Source: Candidatus Amesbacteria bacterium (GTDB lineage Bacteria; Patescibacteriota; Microgenomatia; CAZETR01; Amesbacteraceae). From it: a DNA stretch of 50,924 bases. This document shows positions 725-37,723 of the stretch, piece after piece (the stretch's first letter is position 1; every line of letters starts with the position of its first letter). Under the pieces are notes generated by a model. It did not search any database and was not told the DNA's origin. It saw nothing but the letters and a program-made list of their open reading frames with translations. The DNA is taken from the NCBI GenBank assembly GCA_016219445.1, contig JACRNA010000013.1, forward strand, positions 1 through 50,924, written 5' to 3'. Both the position numbers and the translations under genes were made by a program.

Positions 725-772
725 TAAATGTTGAATATCCCATTGAATGAGTTTATCAAATTTGACAGTATA

Positions 773-781
773 TGTTATACT
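773..781 (+). promoter_or_regulatory. extended -10 promoter candidate (TGtTATACT) for the T-box leader
   Basis: TGnTATACT motif about 7 nt before the first possible Stem I nucleotide near 788. A TTGACA lies at 762-767 but its spacing is too short to act as a -35. Confidence 0.4.
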
Positions 782-787
782 AATAAC

Positions 788-919
788 AGGTGATGAAAGC
801 CACTGGCAAGGCTAGAGCCTAAGACAGAACCAAAAAAGAAGTAACTAGGGTGGAACCACGATACTGAGCGAAGTCGAAGTACTCGTCCCTTACGATAATT
901 TATCGGGGCGAGTTTTTTT
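788..919 (+). promoter_or_regulatory. T-box riboswitch leader, glycine type, copy 1 (terminator-forming)
   Basis: T-box core AGGGTGGAACCACG at 847-860. The antiterminator is GGG, bulge TGGAACC, ACG ... CGTCCC (884-889). CGTCCC also lies in the 5' arm of the terminator at 882-919. UGGA matches a U73-CCA tRNA end, as expected for Gly. Confidence 0.8.
882..919 (+). terminator. intrinsic terminator of T-box copy 1
   Basis: Stem CTCGTCCC (882-889) pairs with GGGGCGAG (905-912), 8 bp with one G-U pair and a 15-nt loop, followed by T7 at 913-919. Confidence 0.8.
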
Positions 920-924
920 ATTGA

Positions 925-1111
925 GAAACAAACTCCGAGCTGAGCCATTAATTTAGGCAGTGAAGGTGTGGAATACCGGAGCTAAAATTAATGACAAAGA
1001 GAGCGGTTTGCGCAGTGGATATATCACAAACCGAAGTTGGGTGGAACCACGCTGGTGTCCTAGACATCTCCGTCCCTACTTTATTTAAAGTACTAAGGAG
1101 GTGAACAAGAA
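925..1111 (+). promoter_or_regulatory. T-box riboswitch leader, glycine type, copy 2 (candidate SD-sequestering, translational)
   Basis: Core TGGGTGGAACCACG at 1038-1051 with CGTCCC at 1071-1076. There is no terminator. Instead CATCTCC (1065-1071) pairs with the SD GGAGGTG (1097-1103), and an inner helix TACTTT/AAAGTA spans 1077-1092. Confidence 0.65.
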
Positions 1112-1282
1112 ATGCCTAAAGAATTAGATTTTGATTTAATTTTGCGAGAAATTATTTTAGAACGTAATCGCAAAGAAAATGTCAAATATAAAATTGCCAA
1201 GTGTGTAGCGGTAGTTATAATTATTTCAGCTGCCGCTGCAAACGCATATTATATATGGGTACCAATGTTTCTGAAGAAGTAA
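1112..1282 (+). CDS. small membrane protein (56 aa), below the ORF-track size cutoff
   Basis: SD AAGGAGGTG, 8 nt, then ATG at 1112. Product is MPKELDFDLILREIILERNRKENVKYKIAKCVAVVIIISAAAANAYYIWVPMFLKK, with a C-terminal hydrophobic helix. Confidence 0.55.
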   Translation: MPKELDFDLILREIILERNRKENVKYKIAKCVAVVIIISAAAANAYYIWVPMFLKK

Positions 1283-1322
1283 CATTGTTCGCCTTTCTAG
1301 GGTGGCGAGATTTATCTAAAAA

Positions 1323-1331
1323 TGGCATAAT
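1323..1331 (+). promoter_or_regulatory. extended -10 candidate TGgCATAAT placed 6 nt before the glyQS ATG (leaderless-type)
   Basis: TG at 1323-1324, CATAAT at 1326-1331, N6, ATG at 1338. There is no SD in front of glyQS. Confidence 0.45.
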
Positions 1332-1337
1332 CAAATT

Positions 1338-2585
1338 ATGAAACAAGATAATTTAATGGAAAAGATTGCGAGTTTGTGCAAGAGACGGGGGTTTGTGTTT
1401 CCAAACTCAGAAATCTACGGTGGATTGCAGGGATTTTATGATTATGGACCGCTCGGAGTAGAAATGAAAAATAACTTGAAACAACTTTGGTGGAAGTGGT
1501 TTACCCGCGAGCATGAGAATATTGTCGGAATTGACGGAACAATTATTGACCATCCTAAAGTCTGGGAAGCCTCGGGGCATGTTCAAAGCTTTGTCGATCC
1601 CCTATCTGAATGTAAAAAATGTCATCACCGATTCAAATCTGATGATATTATTACAAAAACTTGCCCCGATTGTGGTGGAGAATTGACTGATCCTAAAAAC
1701 TTTAATATTTTGATGAGTACCGAACTGGGAGTGATTGAAGGCGAGAAAACTAGGGCATATTTAAGAGGTGAGGCATGTCAGACAATTTATTTAGACTTCA
1801 AAAATGTGGTTGATTCAACTCGTATAAAAATACCATTTGGAATTGTCCAGATCGGAAAAGCTTTCCGAAATGAAGTCACACCCGGAAACTTTATTTTTAG
1901 ACAGCGGGAATTTGAGCAGTGGGATCTACAGTGGTTTACTCACCCATCGGAAATGGATAAGTGGTTTGAGTTTTGGAAGGCGGAACGCATGAAATGGTAT
2001 CAAAGCTTATTTAATGATCAATCCCGGCTGACTTTTTACCAGCACGAAAAGCTGGTTCACTATGCAAAAAAGGCTTTTGATATCCAATTTGATGGCCGGG
2101 AGATGGAAGGTATTCATTGGCGGCAAGATTGGGATTTGGGACGGCACAGCGAATATTCAGGGAAAGATTTAACATATGAGGGATATATTCCTTGGATTGT
2201 AGAGACATCTGGAGGAGTCGATCGTACATTTTTGTTTTTACTAATGGACGCTTATACAGAGGAAAAAGATAGATTAGTACTAAAACTTAACCCGAAGCTT
2301 GCGCCATACAAAGTTGCCGTATTTCCGCTGGTTAGAAACAAGGAGGAAATTACCAAAAAAGCCCGATCTCTCTATCTCAATCTCAAATCTCAAATCTCTT
2401 GTGTCTGGGATGACAGGGGAAATATAGGAAAAAGATATTATTCACAAGACGAGATTGGAACGCCTTGGTGTGTAACGGTGGATTATGAGAAAGATTCGGT
2501 AACTGTAAGAGACAGAGATACAACCAAGCAAGAGCGAGTAGATATTTCTCAGCTTGACAGTTATTTTCAAAATAAGCTAAAGTAA
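1338..2585 (+). CDS. glyQS: glycine--tRNA ligase (alpha2 dimeric class II type)
   Basis: The N-terminus KRRGFVFPNSEIYGGLQGFYDYGPLGVEMKNNL and the overall layout are typical of GlyQS. T-box leaders lie upstream. Confidence 0.95.
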   Translation: MKQDNLMEKIASLCKRRGFVFPNSEIYGGLQGFYDYGPLGVEMKNNLKQLWWKWFTREHENIVGIDGTIIDHPKVWEASGHVQSFVDPLSECKKCHHRFKSDDIITKTCPDCGGELTDPKNFNILMSTELGVIEGEKTRAYLRGEACQTIYLDFKNVVDSTRIKIPFGIVQIGKAFRNEVTPGNFIFRQREFEQWDLQWFTHPSEMDKWFEFWKAERMKWYQSLFNDQSRLTFYQHEKLVHYAKKAFDIQFDGREMEGIHWRQDWDLGRHSEYSGKDLTYEGYIPWIVETSGGVDRTFLFLLMDAYTEEKDRLVLKLNPKLAPYKVAVFPLVRNKEEITKKARSLYLNLKSQISCVWDDRGNIGKRYYSQDEIGTPWCVTVDYEKDSVTVRDRDTTKQERVDISQLDSYFQNKLK

Positions 2586-22960: not shown

Positions 22961-25347
22961 TTCCCAAACCTGTCGCCTCTTAATTGTTCGACATCACTCT
23001 TCAGAAGTCTCATGGATTCAGTCACGCTAGTATTTTTGGCTTTATTTGTCAGTGTGTCAACAGCTGAAAATAATCTGCCGGCTCGCAAATCAAAGCCTGA
23101 TATATTATTGGCCGCCGCAATATTTAGATCATTGACATAGCTTCTAATGCGCAAGACATCTTGCTTGAGAATTGCATTACTGCCGACTGCCGCCAAGGCA
23201 TCATTGGTATGGGATAGCGCGTTGGTCAGGGGATTTGACCCAAGACCGGCTTGGGACATTTGTAATCCGAAAACATGAGTGTTTGTTCCACTGGTTATAT
23301 TTCCGGAAGCTTCTTCCCAGGCCCAATCAGTATCCTTGATTTTACCAAAATAAACTATATATGCTCCGCCCGCACCACTCGGGGTAATATTCACCGTATA
23401 ATTTCCGTCAGATGGGTTATTGACAATCAATAAATTATCAGTTGGTGTCAGGGTCGAGTTAGTGGGAATTGTGACCGTAAAATTTACAGGCGAGGCAACG
23501 GTCACTATCAGAGCGTTGGCTAGTGATGACTGGGTGGATGTAGAAACTGTACCAGAAATGCCCAAGATACTTTGGATTTTAGCCAGAGTAGTGGAATTAG
23601 AAACAAGAGCTTGGTGATCTTGATTATCTTGAGCTGAATTTTCCAGAGAATTAGTAATTTGGCCACTGGTCAGAAGGACGGTGCCATCACCCGGGGCGTT
23701 GGTTACACCAATCGGTTTGCCGTTTGCCCATCTGCCCAGCAATTTATCAAATGTACCGCGGGCAGTGACAGTATATGTTTTTGGCGTATTCAGATTGGTA
23801 CCAGAAATTGTATATAAAGAAGTATTTGTCAGAGTACTTAAAAAATTGCTTTTAGTGCCGGTACCGGAATTAAAATATTCAAAGGTTGGCAATATATTTT
23901 GGAGATTAGGAAACTTGCTTTGGATTGTGGTCACATCATTGGCGTAGGATTTACGGTTCAATCTTAAATAAAGCTTAACCAGCAGACTTTGCCAGGATGG
24001 CAGGTCAGAAAAGTCTGCCCCTTCCCAAATTTTGAAAGCGGGAAGCGCGCCCGCATGCGGGCTGGCAATAGTTATCAATTTATTTATTTTGGCAGGATTG
24101 TTTTGGGCATAGAGTCTGGCAATTAATCCTCCTTGACTATGGCCGAGCAGATTGACACTAGTCAGATTTTTGCTGGTTATAAAGCTTGCCAAATTGCTGG
24201 CTGTATCCGATATACTTTTGCGCCAGTCATAATAATAAACCCACAAATCGGTGCCGTCTGTGTATCCGGAATTCTTGAGAGTGGTAATCAAGCCGTCATA
24301 GACAGTTACCAATGGCGTCAGCGACCAGCTGCTGTCAGCAACGGCCGTATTATGTACCAGGGCTTCATAATTCCAGCTTCCCCCCATGCCGGGCAAGACG
24401 ATGACTGGGGTTAGTGGTGTGGGAGTTGGGGTGGGAGTGGCCCAGCTACCTAAATTTCCTGAACTATCGATACTGGTATACCAAACTTGATTTGAAATAT
24501 TTCCATCGACAACACCTCCAGCGTGAACCAAATATCCATTGGCAATAGTTATCATGGCTCTTCTGGAAGTGAAAGGTAAATTGTTTTCCGTTTGCCAATC
24601 GTTTAATGACCCATCGGAATTTACGATAATTGACCAGACTTTATTTGTACCGGAAGAGTTGGAAACGATAGATCCACCGACTAAAATAATTTTATTTCCG
24701 ATAGTTACAGCGCCGTGTTCAAAAAGTGATGTGGGCATCGATTTGTTGGCATAACTCCAAGAGGACAAAGACCCATCTGGATTTATAGTAGATACAAAAA
24801 TATCAGACGATACAACTGGACTACCTCCATTTGTCCAGGTAGCACCACCCAATAGATAAATCTTATCATTCACTCTCACTGCAGAGCCCAATGATATTCT
24901 TCTTCCACCATTTAAATTCGGACCAGATGTCCAACTTAAAATCTTATTGTTTAATATTTGCCCAAAGTATGTCGATCCAACAGAATATGGTTGTCCAGGT
25001 GAGTTTTCTGTTGTTCCACCCAATATATAGACAAAATGATCTTTGGTAACAGATGAATGCCAAATTGATTTTTCGATCATATTTGCAGAGTCAGAATTGA
25101 TGTTACCTAATGATCCATCATTGTTTATGTCAACCGATTTTACATAACTTCTACTATCGCCCAGTTGAACTGTCGCACCATAAGTAAATAATCTATTGCT
25201 ATCTATGCTTAATTGAGTGTTTGCGTACGTATATGGAAGAGTCTTTATGCTCGACCAGCTAGAAAATGGTTCCGACGAAGCTAATATTGTGGCCAGAGTA
25301 CCATGGAAAAACAGCAAAATAGAAATGCAAATTACTTTAATTTTCAC
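22957..25347 (-). CDS. secreted Kelch-repeat / alpha-beta-hydrolase (lipase-like) fusion protein
   Basis: Signal peptide. Four to five blades marked by IN.DGSL..W and ..GG motifs. TPTPTPTPLTP linker near aa 303-314. PGMGGSW plus the nucleophile elbow GHSQGG (Ser about aa 404). Long beta-rich C-terminus. GTG start. Confidence 0.7.
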   Translation of the reverse strand: MKIKVICISILLFFHGTLATILASSEPFSSWSSIKTLPYTYANTQLSIDSNRLFTYGATVQLGDSRSYVKSVDINNDGSLGNINSDSANMIEKSIWHSSVTKDHFVYILGGTTENSPGQPYSVGSTYFGQILNNKILSWTSGPNLNGGRRISLGSAVRVNDKIYLLGGATWTNGGSPVVSSDIFVSTINPDGSLSSWSYANKSMPTSLFEHGAVTIGNKIILVGGSIVSNSSGTNKVWSIIVNSDGSLNDWQTENNLPFTSRRAMITIANGYLVHAGGVVDGNISNQVWYTSIDSSGNLGSWATPTPTPTPLTPVIVLPGMGGSWNYEALVHNTAVADSSWSLTPLVTVYDGLITTLKNSGYTDGTDLWVYYYDWRKSISDTASNLASFITSKNLTSVNLLGHSQGGLIARLYAQNNPAKINKLITIASPHAGALPAFKIWEGADFSDLPSWQSLLVKLYLRLNRKSYANDVTTIQSKFPNLQNILPTFEYFNSGTGTKSNFLSTLTNTSLYTISGTNLNTPKTYTVTARGTFDKLLGRWANGKPIGVTNAPGDGTVLLTSGQITNSLENSAQDNQDHQALVSNSTTLAKIQSILGISGTVSTSTQSSLANALIVTVASPVNFTVTIPTNSTLTPTDNLLIVNNPSDGNYTVNITPSGAGGAYIVYFGKIKDTDWAWEEASGNITSGTNTHVFGLQMSQAGLGSNPLTNALSHTNDALAAVGSNAILKQDVLRIRSYVNDLNIAAANNISGFDLRAGRLFSAVDTLTNKAKNTSVTESMRLLKSDVEQLRGDRFGN

Positions 25348-35928: not shown

Positions 35929-36114
35929 AGCGGTGGATCGGATTTGAACCCGCTTCTTTTCCTTGCCTGCCCGCCATCACCAGACTGAGTGGGATACGAG
36001 AATCGGACTCGCATCTTCTGCTTGGGAAGCAGACGTACTACCACTGTACTAATCCCACTCGCTCAGGCATGGCAGGCGGGGGAAGGAGACATTCTACCAC
36101 TGAACTACCACCGC
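35929..36114 (-). pseudogene. split tRNA-Gly(CCC)-like gene interrupted after anticodon position 36 by a 115-nt insert
   Basis: The 5' half (36114-36080) is GCGGTGG TA GTTC AGTGGTA GAAT G TCTCC TT CCC. The 3' half (35964-35929) is AA GGAAA AGAA GCGGG TTCAAAT CCGAT CCACCGC T. The T stem no longer pairs. Confidence 0.5.
35988..36058 (-). tRNA. tRNA-Gly (anticodon CCC), nested inside the split gene
   Basis: GTGGGAT/ATCCCAC acceptor, GTAC/GTAC D stem, TCTGC-TTCCCAA-GCAGA anticodon arm, GCGAG-TCCGATT-CTCGT T arm, discriminator U. Position 55 is an unusual C. Confidence 0.8.
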
Positions 36115-37122: not shown

Positions 37123-37716
37123 ATGAATAAAGTAACGGTTTTAGTTGAAGGCTACGCTCATCCCAATGACGATGGATCGTATACAGCCAGTCCCACAGCA
37201 GCTCTAATTGAAACTGAAAATAAAAAGATTTTGGTAGATCCTGGGACAAACTCCGAAAAATTATTAGAAGCGCTGAAAGCTAAAAATTTAAATGTAGCTG
37301 ATATCTCATTTATTTATTTAAGTCACTATCATCCTGATCATTTTCTAAATATCCGATTGTTTCCAAATATTGATATTTATGATGGGGGAATTAGATGGAG
37401 TGGTGACAAGGAATATTTTTATACTGGTTTTTTACCAGAGACTGACATAGAAATCTTAAAAACTCCCGGTCATTCTCCAGAGGACTGTGCACTTCTTATA
37501 AATACTAAAGACGGTAATGTTTGTATAGCACCTGATGTTTTTTGGTGGGAAGATGGCAAGCAAAATTCAGATACTATAGATGACTTATTAAATTTAGTAG
37601 ATCCATTTGCGACTGACACTGTTGCGTTGCTAAAGTCACGCCGCTTAATAATAGAAAAATCCGATTTCATTATCCCCGGCCATGGAAAAATGTTTAAGAC
37701 TCCTAAGCTGATATAA
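37123..37716 (+). CDS. MBL-fold metallo-hydrolase
   Basis: HxHxDH motif (LSHYHPDHF), and later TPGHSPED and PGHG ligand motifs. Confidence 0.85.
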   Translation: MNKVTVLVEGYAHPNDDGSYTASPTAALIETENKKILVDPGTNSEKLLEALKAKNLNVADISFIYLSHYHPDHFLNIRLFPNIDIYDGGIRWSGDKEYFYTGFLPETDIEILKTPGHSPEDCALLINTKDGNVCIAPDVFWWEDGKQNSDTIDDLLNLVDPFATDTVALLKSRRLIIEKSDFIIPGHGKMFKTPKLI

Positions 37717-37717
37717 T
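37709..37717 (+). promoter_or_regulatory. extended -10 candidate TGaTATAAT placed 6 nt before the pepF ATG
   Basis: TG at 37709-37710, TATAAT at 37712-37717, N6, ATG at 37724. Confidence 0.4.
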
Positions 37718-37723
37718 CAAAGG

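Follow-up and report, generated by a model that had tools for sequence, protein, structure and literature searches.

Two minimal T-box riboswitches in series form a putative glycine-responsive cassette upstream of glyS in a Candidatus Amesbacteria bacterium

Introduction

How short can a T-box leader be and still sense the charging of its tRNA? Reviews of these riboswitches hold that transcriptional T-boxes generally need a long Stem I, with which the tRNA elbow is caught quickly, and that translational T-boxes may have a short Stem I, given a compensating Stem II and IIA/B pseudoknot (PMC7583486, PMC11297988). The locus considered here lies in a 50,924-nucleotide stretch of DNA from a Candidatus Amesbacteria bacterium (contig JACRNA010000013.1), which was analyzed at its full length and is referred to below as the window. 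Positions 788–1111 had been proposed, from the letters of the sequence, to hold two tandem glycine T-box leaders, both with a very short Stem I, which raises the question of whether leaders of this size are T-boxes and how they would work. It is quite likely, in our view, that two minimal T-box riboswitches, arranged one after the other 5′ of glyS, make up a glycine-responsive regulatory cassette at 788–1340. The sequence of this cassette, its structures, their covariation, the mutually exclusive folds and the synteny are directly supported, and all of its elements are encoded on the plus strand.

Results

Two T-box cores and their match to the T-box family

The conserved T-box core AGGGUGGNACCGCG is present at 847–860 and again at 1038–1051, and GGGTGGAACCACG is exact at 848–860 and 1039–1051. 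When up to two mismatches were allowed, a search for GGGTGGAACCACG found a single further site in the 51-kb window, at 25009 with two mismatches, and none of 100 shuffled windows gave three matches. Both cores read CCACG rather than CCGCG, as do 9 of 67 members of the class of relatives described below. The sequence CGTCCC, which forms the antiterminator 3′ strand, lies at 884–889 and 1071–1076. The two canonical antiterminators of the original prediction are thereby located to the base, and each is complete, with a helix A1, a 7-nt bulge of the form UGGNACC (UGGAACC), a helix A2 and the 3′ strand CGUCCC. In both copies this 3′ strand is shared with a terminator or sequestrator, and the two folds are mutually exclusive.

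At the gathering threshold, an Rfam search over the window returned four tRNAs only and no T-box. Under permissive settings, the T-box model RF00230 matched copy 2 at 951–1080 (35.3 bits, E = 4e-6) and copy 1 at 663–893 (21.2 bits, E = 0.017), both far below the gathering threshold of 93 bits. The K-turn, Stem III flanks, core and antiterminator were aligned in both copies. In the alignment of copy 2, 76 Stem I positions were deleted, and this deletion is the key to the ultrashort anatomy set out in the following section. A covariance model built from 51 class sequences with the window excluded (model R1) gave exactly two matches in the window, at 785–891 (51.5 bits, E = 1.7e-11) and 952–1078 (43.7 bits, E = 1.6e-9). 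Other class members score 32–60 bits under RF00230, always below 93, so that T-box censuses built on this threshold would miss the class. By sequence, then, both copies are T-box riboswitches of a minimal type. The checks proposed with the original prediction point the same way: the T-box covariance-model search matches both copies significantly, though far under the Rfam gathering score, folding of both conformers of each copy yields mutually exclusive structures with the energies reported below, and covariation is found in homologous leaders across the class.

Stem I, specifiers and missing parts

Stem I in both copies consists of a basal helix, a K-turn, a helix of 3–4 bp and a terminal loop of 7–8 nt that reads U-GGN-A. 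Specifically, Stem I of copy 1 (788–820), which was fixed by alignment to model R1 and by class covariation of both helices, runs AGGU-GAU-GA-AAGCC-ACUGGCAA-GGCUA-GA-GCCU. Its basal helix (788–791/817–820) and upper helix (798–801/810–813) enclose a K-turn (GAUGA/AGA) with a GAU bulge at 792–794 and the pairs G795·A816 and A796·G815, and its terminal loop ACUGGCAA (802–809) holds the triplet GGC at 805–807, followed by the purine A808. Stem I of copy 2 (955–984; Rfam and model R1 alignments) runs GGC-AGU-GA-AGGU-GUGGAAU-ACCG-GA-GCU, with a basal helix at 956–958/981–983, an upper helix at 965–967/975–977, a K-turn (AGUGA/GGA) with an AGU bulge at 959–961 and the pairs G962·A980 and A963·G979, and a 7-nt loop GUGGAAU (968–974) that holds GGA at 970–972 and the purine A973. 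The K-turn, with its GA motif, is thus present at the base of Stem I in both copies, and the helices flanking it covary.

As the loops read U-GGC-A and U-GGA-A, the specifiers are assigned as GGC 805–807 and GGA 970–972. Both had been among the three candidates offered originally, and alignment and covariation uphold them; the third, GGC 956–958, is rejected, as it sits in the basal helix beneath the K-turn. The claim that Stem I is ultrashort is now fixed comparatively as a K-turn, a short covarying helix and a terminal specifier loop, and the claimed glycine specificity agrees with the UGGA bulge, with the GGC and GGA specifiers that are each followed by A, and with glyS downstream. Unusually stable complexes between anticodons are known, and the specifier loop is organized like an anticodon loop (7 nt, U before the triplet, purine after it), so that the contact with tRNA may resemble such complexes.

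Several parts of larger T-boxes are missing. Neither an elbow-binding platform (AG bulge plus apical loop) nor an internal specifier loop with S-turn was found in either copy or in any class member examined, and the same holds for Stem II and the IIA/B pseudoknot in both copies and in the class members examined. With respect to Stem III and its RRRxG…AA flanks, copy 2 has the stem (1004–1033; Rfam alignment and folding) together with the flanks GAGAG 999–1003 and AA 1034–1035, and the sequence of this stem is different in its orthologues at three related loci (L172, L139 and L147). Folding and alignment leave only an unstructured linker of ~19 nt between Stem I and Stem III of copy 2. Copy 1 has the flanks only: no helix is predicted by folding in its linker (821–846), which keeps the purines AAGAAG 836–841 and AA 843–844. 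In the alignment, Stem III is cleanly deleted from copy 1 and from L003, and likewise from L201 and L204, with the common remnant AAGAAG-U-AA-CUAGGG; counted from Stem I through the antiterminator, the L003 element is 91 nt long.

Copy 1 as a putative transcriptional switch

A predicted sigma-70-like promoter precedes copy 1 at 753–781, with a −35 element TTATCA (753–758) and an extended −10 element TGtTATACT (773–781); a promoter scan scored 9 of 12 matches plus the TG. As the extended −10 ends at 781, a transcript start near 788 is reasonable, and relatives carry TTGACA-N17-TATAAT or TATAGT at the same place. The antiterminator (847–890) is composed of A1 (847–850/887–890), the bulge UGGAACC (851–857) and A2 (858–860/884–886 plus an extension), and it is the minimum free energy (MFE) fold of a transcript ending at 892, at −8.8 kcal/mol. 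Once the full sequence is available, an intrinsic terminator at 881–919 takes its place in the MFE fold (780–925), with a stem 881–889/905–913, an inner GAUA/UAUC helix and seven U residues at 913–919. The terminator reaches −18.6 kcal/mol, compared with −11.7 kcal/mol for the enforced antiterminator, in keeping with the proposal that copy 1 is of terminator type. A simple terminator scan had missed this element because of its structured loop, and folding recovered it.

Copy 2 as a putative translational switch

The anti-sequestrator of copy 2 (1039–1076) is built from A1 (1039–1041/1074–1076), the bulge UGGAACC (1042–1048) and A2 (1049–1051/1071–1073), above which a distal A2 hairpin (1054–1057/1065–1068) presents an apical CCUAGA (1059–1064). 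In the MFE fold of 940–1125, this structure is replaced by a sequestrator (1065–1103) in which the anti-Shine–Dalgarno (anti-SD) CAUCUCC (1065–1071) pairs with the SD GGAGGUG (1097–1103), accompanied by an inner UACUUU/AAAGUA helix (1077–1082/1087–1092); no U-tract follows the sequestrator helix. Since 1065–1068 belongs to the anti-SD and also to the 3′ strand of the distal A2 hairpin, and C1071 closes A2, the two folds exclude each other. The sequestrator comprises 7 bp in the window and is favored at −20.0 versus −16.4 kcal/mol, a narrow gap of 3.6 kcal/mol that fits a reversible translational switch.

The original assignment of copy 2 as lacking a terminator and sequestering an SD is supported, and its anti-SD/SD helix recurs in five lineages of relatives. 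Their anti-SD variants (UACCUUC, CAUCUC, CACUUUC, CACCUUC) all pair with an invariant GGAGGUG, and 41 of 42 cells are paired, compared with 45–71% when the partners are slid, although this support is one-sided because the SD cannot vary (C/U changes opposite G). Moreover, the MFE fold of every one of these relatives (L172, L139/L191, L147, L201 and L204) buries the SD. The conservation of AAGGAGGUG matters here since SDs are rare in the window, where an SD-like motif precedes only 7 of 40 large ORFs and glyS has none. Other class members sequester an SD or AUG directly 5′ of glyS (L082, L132, L177 and L179), and copy 2 of the tandem at L047 does the same for an SHMT gene. Of the two window copies, the sequestrator versus anti-sequestrator arrangement on an SD that marks translational T-boxes is found in copy 2 only.

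Relatives and covariation

The GlyRS protein places the window in Patescibacteria, near Microgenomates and Amesbacteria. Leaders of the same type were found at 3 of 80 species-representative GlyRS loci: a single T-box directly 5′ of an SD-less glyS (L003), a tandem with both copies of terminator type (L063) and a tandem 5′ of an SHMT gene (L047). A metagenome scan for a pattern of K-turn, UGGCA and core gave at least 120 loci, and most of those listed have the same architecture. Because ATGA, TGGCA and the core are set by the pattern itself, no variation can appear in those columns, and the helices are free. Helix variants among class members include CGC/GCG, AAGC/GCUU, GGGG/UCCC, UCCCA/UGGGG and UAAGAG/CUCUUG, and RNAalifold, applied to a plain MAFFT alignment, detected compensatory changes in 11 of 17 pairs. 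In a model-based alignment of 67 sequences, which is itself fitted to the structure, 91.4% of cells are paired (versus 72.5% when shuffled and 40–52% for slid partners) and double changes occur in 12 of 18 pairs. Both A1 and A2 covary in the class.

The genes downstream of class members are glyS, glyQ, an SHMT gene and a PurU-like gene, and hosts assigned by exact protein look-up include Acidaminococcus fermentans, A. intestini, Clostridia, Anaerolineaceae and Patescibacteria. Matches to GGTGGAACC in L045, L054 and ~14 metagenome sites lie in coding DNA and were rejected as chance, and L094 and L095 were excluded as streptococcal glyQ leaders of the ordinary type with a long Stem I.

Tandem copies are common in the class; besides the window, they are present at L047, L063, L126, L139, L147, L172 and L190. 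The full series of tandem, strong SD, small ORF, hairpin and glyS is found in L172, L139/L191, L147, L201 and L204. The specifier pair GGC then GGA recurs in L172, and the second copy carries GGC in L201, L204, L139 and L147. No cassette was found near GlyRS relatives at 83–89% identity (L001 and L205–L209 searched). L201 and L204 have T-boxes, small ORF, hairpin and the first glyS codons (MKxDNLMEKI) in common with the window, and their GlyRS proteins are of a longer type, 49% and 41% identical to that of the window. A common cassette despite such divergent GlyRS indicates that it moved, or was retained, independently of the gene body.

The small ORF and a candidate loop–loop contact

The SD of copy 2 serves a 56-residue gene (1112–1282, ATG at 1112) upstream of glyS, whose product has a C-terminal hydrophobic helix and whose frame contains no glycine codon. 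Two homologues are 77% and 71% identical, and a dN/dS of 0.14–0.17 identifies the ORF as a real gene under purifying selection in the window lineage. It has no Pfam match. The small ORFs at L172 (86 aa), L139 (49 aa) and L147 (75 aa) are not alignable with it, and a protein search with that of L147 matched only itself. The small ORFs contain no glycine in the window, L172 or L139 and a single one in L147, against a background of 7.1%; a frame this poor in glycine would still be translatable when Gly-tRNA is scarce. No terminator lies between the small ORF and glyS.

Between the two genes is a conserved hairpin (1288–1309) with UCUAGG (1296–1301) in its loop (1294–1303). The stems covary between lineages (UGCACUU/AAGUGUA, CCCGCUU/AAGCGGG, UGCGCCU/AGGCGCA and UUCGCC/GGCGAG), and the loop motif UUCUAGG is present despite these differences, except that the L204 loop reads UCUGGG. 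The apical CCUAGA of copy 2 is the exact complement of UCUAGG, 236 nt downstream. The copy 2 A2 tip is GUCCUAGAC in all cassette loci apart from L172, where it is AUCCUAGAU with CCUAGA kept, and L204, where a tip CCCAGA faces the loop UCUGGG, which amounts to paired U>C and A>G changes at pairing positions. All 36 cells of the putative kissing loops are paired across lineages, with one compensatory change, and the calculated energy of the duplex is −8.3 kcal/mol in the window and −10.3 kcal/mol in L204. In the MFE folds of L201, L147 and L172 the OFF-state helix reaches into the tip nucleotides, which would make the contact specific to the ON state. We conclude from complementarity and one covariation event that the ON-state tip of copy 2 probably kisses the hairpin just upstream of the glyS start. 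Its purpose, as a best guess, would be to latch the ON state or to relay it to the glyS start, which is unstructured and lacks an SD.

Other explanations for the CUAG loops fare less well. Self-dimerization, or a protein site, is disfavored: the homoduplexes reach −4.4 and −5.4 kcal/mol compared with −8.3 kcal/mol for the heteroduplex, and L204 breaks the palindrome while keeping the complementarity. A pairing of the copy 2 loop with CUAGG of the copy 1 core was rejected, as it is not kept in relatives.

The glyS gene and glycine tRNAs

The glyS gene (1338–2585) encodes a homodimeric-type class II glycyl-tRNA synthetase and has no SD. At 1323–1331, 6 nt upstream of its ATG, lies TGgCATAAT, which may be an extended −10 promoter of its own, and synteny is the sole basis on which the T-boxes are proposed to act on glyS output. 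The UGGA of the T-box bulge fits a U73 discriminator, and the tRNA-Gly gene of the window, tRNA-Gly(CCC) at 35987–36058 on the minus strand, has the predicted U73; CCA is not encoded. This tRNA was rejected as the ligand, as its anticodon matches neither specifier. No genes for the cognate tRNA-Gly(GCC) and tRNA-Gly(UCC) are found in the 51-kb window. The glycine codons of the window divide into GGA (37%), GGU (33%), GGC (18%) and GGG (13%), and by this usage the GGC and GGA specifiers cover both main isoacceptors.

Alternative readings of the locus

One alternative for the regulated gene is that the T-boxes govern the small membrane-protein gene only, and that glyS is leaderless, transcribed from the extended −10 promoter near its ATG. 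In most lineages the glyS ATG is indeed preceded, at a distance of 6–10 nt, by a TGnCATAAT-like element (without the TG in L139), many window genes have a −10-like box immediately 5′ of the ATG and no SD, and the small ORF is under purifying selection. Nonetheless, the cassette always adjoins glyS, even where glyS is only 41–49% identical, glyS genes without an SD can be directly preceded by a single T-box of the class (for example L003), and a hairpin complementary to copy 2 is conserved at the glyS start. The small ORFs of different lineages cannot be aligned with one another, and the small ORF and glyS are not separated by a terminator. We therefore regard control of the small gene only as unlikely, and favor a cassette that acts on glyS.

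Somewhat less probable still is a cassette in which copy 1 alone works and copy 2 is either a decaying duplicate or a transcriptional element, acting for instance through Rho-dependent termination, rather than one that hides an SD. Copy 2 is indeed the weaker match to model R1 (43.7 bits), its outermost A1 position is a U·U mismatch, and its sequestrator is short and of a kind in which double covariation is impossible. A decaying duplicate is nonetheless hard to reconcile with copy-2-type elements kept in five lineages with stems that differ in sequence; all of these loci keep AAGGAGGUG though SDs are rarely used, and all fold into an SD-covering helix. Sequestration of an SD or AUG 5′ of glyS or the SHMT gene is plain in other class members, and no U-tract follows copy 2. 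For two working copies as a whole, one might still object that a chance resemblance in AT-rich intergenic DNA would also fall under the Rfam gathering score and give unremarkable whole-leader fold z-scores such as those observed (−0.6 and −0.8). This view, to which we assign a negligible probability, is refuted by the exact 13-mers, by an independent model with E-values near 1e-10 and by the class-wide covariation. Two functional T-boxes, the second of them acting on an SD, remain the preferred reading.

Discussion

Proposed mechanism

From the sequence we infer tRNA binding, the regulatory outcome and the roles of the small ORF and the loop–loop contact as follows. Each copy would touch tRNA-Gly at two points only, the specifier codon, displayed in an anticodon-loop-like terminal hairpin atop a K-turn, and the T-box bulge, whose UGGA would pair with the UCCA 3′ end of uncharged tRNA. 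In copy 1, GGC would read tRNA-Gly(GCC) and set the antiterminator against the intrinsic terminator that ends at ~919. In copy 2, GGA would read tRNA-Gly(UCC) and set the anti-sequestrator against the helix that buries the strong SD of the glycine-free 56-aa gene. Read-through and translation of the leader gene would then increase glyS expression. With one sensor per isoacceptor in series, full induction would need both major glycine isoacceptors to be uncharged.

A bolder and decidedly tentative reading, which we find possible but somewhat doubtful, is that the cassette is a portable three-part device. Its first part would be the smallest natural tRNA sensors seen so far, of 91–107 nt, which lack the elbow contact, Stem II and, in copy 1, Stem III, and which would recognize tRNA-Gly through an anticodon-loop-like kissing contact and the 3′ end. 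The second would be a two-isoacceptor AND gate that joins a transcriptional step with a translational one, and the third a long-range kissing loop that would latch the switch or relay its state over 236 nt to a gene that has no SD.

Relation to known T-boxes

The closest known relatives are the transcriptional glyQS/glyS T-boxes of Bacillus, Geobacillus and Staphylococcus (RF00230). These share with the window copies a GGC/GGA specifier followed by a purine, a K-turn at the base of Stem I, the lack of Stem II and IIA/B, the UGGA bulge for U73, the RRRxG-Stem III-AA arrangement (copy 2 here), the competition of antiterminator and terminator, and control of glycyl-tRNA synthetase. The window copies differ from those leaders as follows: the specifier is carried by a terminal hairpin loop of 7–8 nt instead of an S-turn-containing internal loop; Stem I is without its distal two-thirds, whose AG bulge and apical loop bind the elbow; Stem III is missing from copy 1; and A2 has A-U at its base instead of the usual G·U. 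The translational ileS T-boxes of actinobacteria (Mycobacterium, Nocardia), as summarized in reviews, have in common with copy 2 a sequestrator opposed to an anti-sequestrator on the SD and, with both copies, a truncated Stem I without elbow contact (PMC7583486, PMC11297988). According to the same reviews, however, the codon–anticodon helix of those T-boxes cannot be held without Stem II (with its S-turn) and the IIA/B pseudoknot (PMC7583486, PMC11297988), and neither is present here. Moreover, the truncated Stem I described here also drives a terminator, in copy 1 and in most class members, whereas the literature ties terminators to a long Stem I.

The minimal class thus breaks both review rules on Stem I length. 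It is not rare, with members in cultured gut Negativicutes, Clostridia, Chloroflexi and the candidate phyla radiation (CPR), and it offers a natural minimal construct of ~91–107 nt for asking what suffices to sense tRNA charging. A truncated Stem I without Stem II is reported to bind tRNA barely, and Stem III has been described as indispensable (PMC7583486). An antiterminator that lacks Stem III is reported not to bind tRNA appreciably (PMC7583486, PMC11297988). Copy 1 is without both Stem II and Stem III, counter to the published requirement (PMC7583486). That glycine T-boxes do without Stem II has been attributed to a strong GGC:GCC helix (PMC7583486), and by analogy this explanation may extend to the minimal class. 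For the reduced genomes of the CPR, where regulation is poorly known, the cassette would represent amino-acid sensing of the riboswitch type. Our literature searches brought up neither an ultrashort glycine T-box nor T-boxes in the CPR nor a long-range loop–loop contact of a T-box, although prior mention of each is possible; the kissing loops described above are a candidate for such a contact, one that would link a riboswitch to a distant start site.

Leaders with two complete T-boxes in series are known, and the window resembles them in its tandem arrangement. It differs from them in that the copies have different specifiers (GGC and GGA) and different predicted outputs (termination and SD sequestration), of which it is a natural example, and in that a small ORF and a conserved hairpin stand between the T-boxes and the regulated gene. 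Integration of the charging of more than one glycine isoacceptor by one leader has a counterpart in the S. aureus glyS T-box (PMC4574755). There, a single GGC specifier tolerates both the GCC and the UCC anticodon, whereas the window has two sensors, each with a matched codon (PMC4574755).

Distribution and conserved elements of the glyS cassette

The cassette of tandem T-boxes, small ORF and hairpin upstream of glyS does not follow GlyRS relatedness. When window 740-1360 was compared with the close GlyRS relatives L001 and L205-L209, the whole cassette was found to be absent from these loci, the GlyRS of which are 83-89% identical to that of the window. The same region compared with L201 and L204 revealed the cassette in both, with a small ORF that is 71-77% identical, and the GlyRS of these two loci is of a longer type and only 41-49% identical to the window's. 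The junction of the cassette lies inside the first glyS codons (MKQDNL vs MDL).

Within the cassette, the tip of the copy 2 antiterminator helix (CCUAGA, 1059-1064) is the complement of UCUAGG (1296-1301), in the conserved loop of the hairpin that precedes glyS. This complementarity is kept across all lineages examined, including L204, where both sides have changed together: the tip reads CCCAGA (about 254-259) and the loop of the hairpin 3′ of the L204 small ORF reads UCUGGG.

The small ORFs located behind the translational T-box in the window (1112-1282) and in three other lineages with the full layout (L172, 753-1013, minus strand; L139, 1082-1231; L147, 3138-3365) show no homology from lineage to lineage, and all four are nearly glycine-free, with a single Gly in 266 residues against a background of 7.1%. 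With a dN/dS of about 0.15, the window ORF is evolving under purifying selection. A sigma-70-like sequence, TTGCCA-N16-TATAAT (1194-1221), also lies within this ORF and, with 11 of 12 matches, is the best in the region; if active, this predicted promoter would yield a glyS transcript independent of the T-boxes.

With respect to translation initiation, an SD-like motif of any kind precedes only 7 of the 40 large ORFs window-wide, and several ORFs carry a -10-like box directly 5′ of the ATG (e.g. 37702-37723 and, on the minus strand, 16715). These include glyS, where TGgCATAAT is followed by 6 nt and then ATG (1323-1337). Taken together, these sequence features suggest that leaderless or SD-independent initiation is frequent in the window.

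Features and hosts of the minimal glycine T-box class

Many CPR-type members share a conserved Stem III tip motif, A(C/A)UGGA(U/A)AUCAU (window 1011-1026; also L047, L082, L087, L126, L145, L147 and L190). The motif includes a second UGGA, which might provide an extra tRNA contact in place of the Stem I platform that has been lost. The basal pair of helix A2 is normally a G·U wobble, which is said to contribute to the steric sieve that excludes charged tRNA; both window copies have A-U there (858/886 and 1049/1073), as do 9 of 67 class members.

The class also occurs upstream of genes for PurU-like formyltetrahydrofolate deformylases (ACT plus Formyl_trans_N) and SHMT (L083, L131, L138; L047, L142, L160, L161), which connects the class with the metabolism of glycine and one-carbon units. 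Finally, ultrashort-Stem-I T-boxes, GCAAUGAGGGG-GUUGGCA-UCCCUGAGCG, are present in the glyQ leaders of Acidaminococcus fermentans and A. intestini (human-gut contigs L098, L102, L124 and others), making cultured organisms available for experiments on the class; L098, the only Acidaminococcus leader tested, has an Rfam score of about 40 bits.
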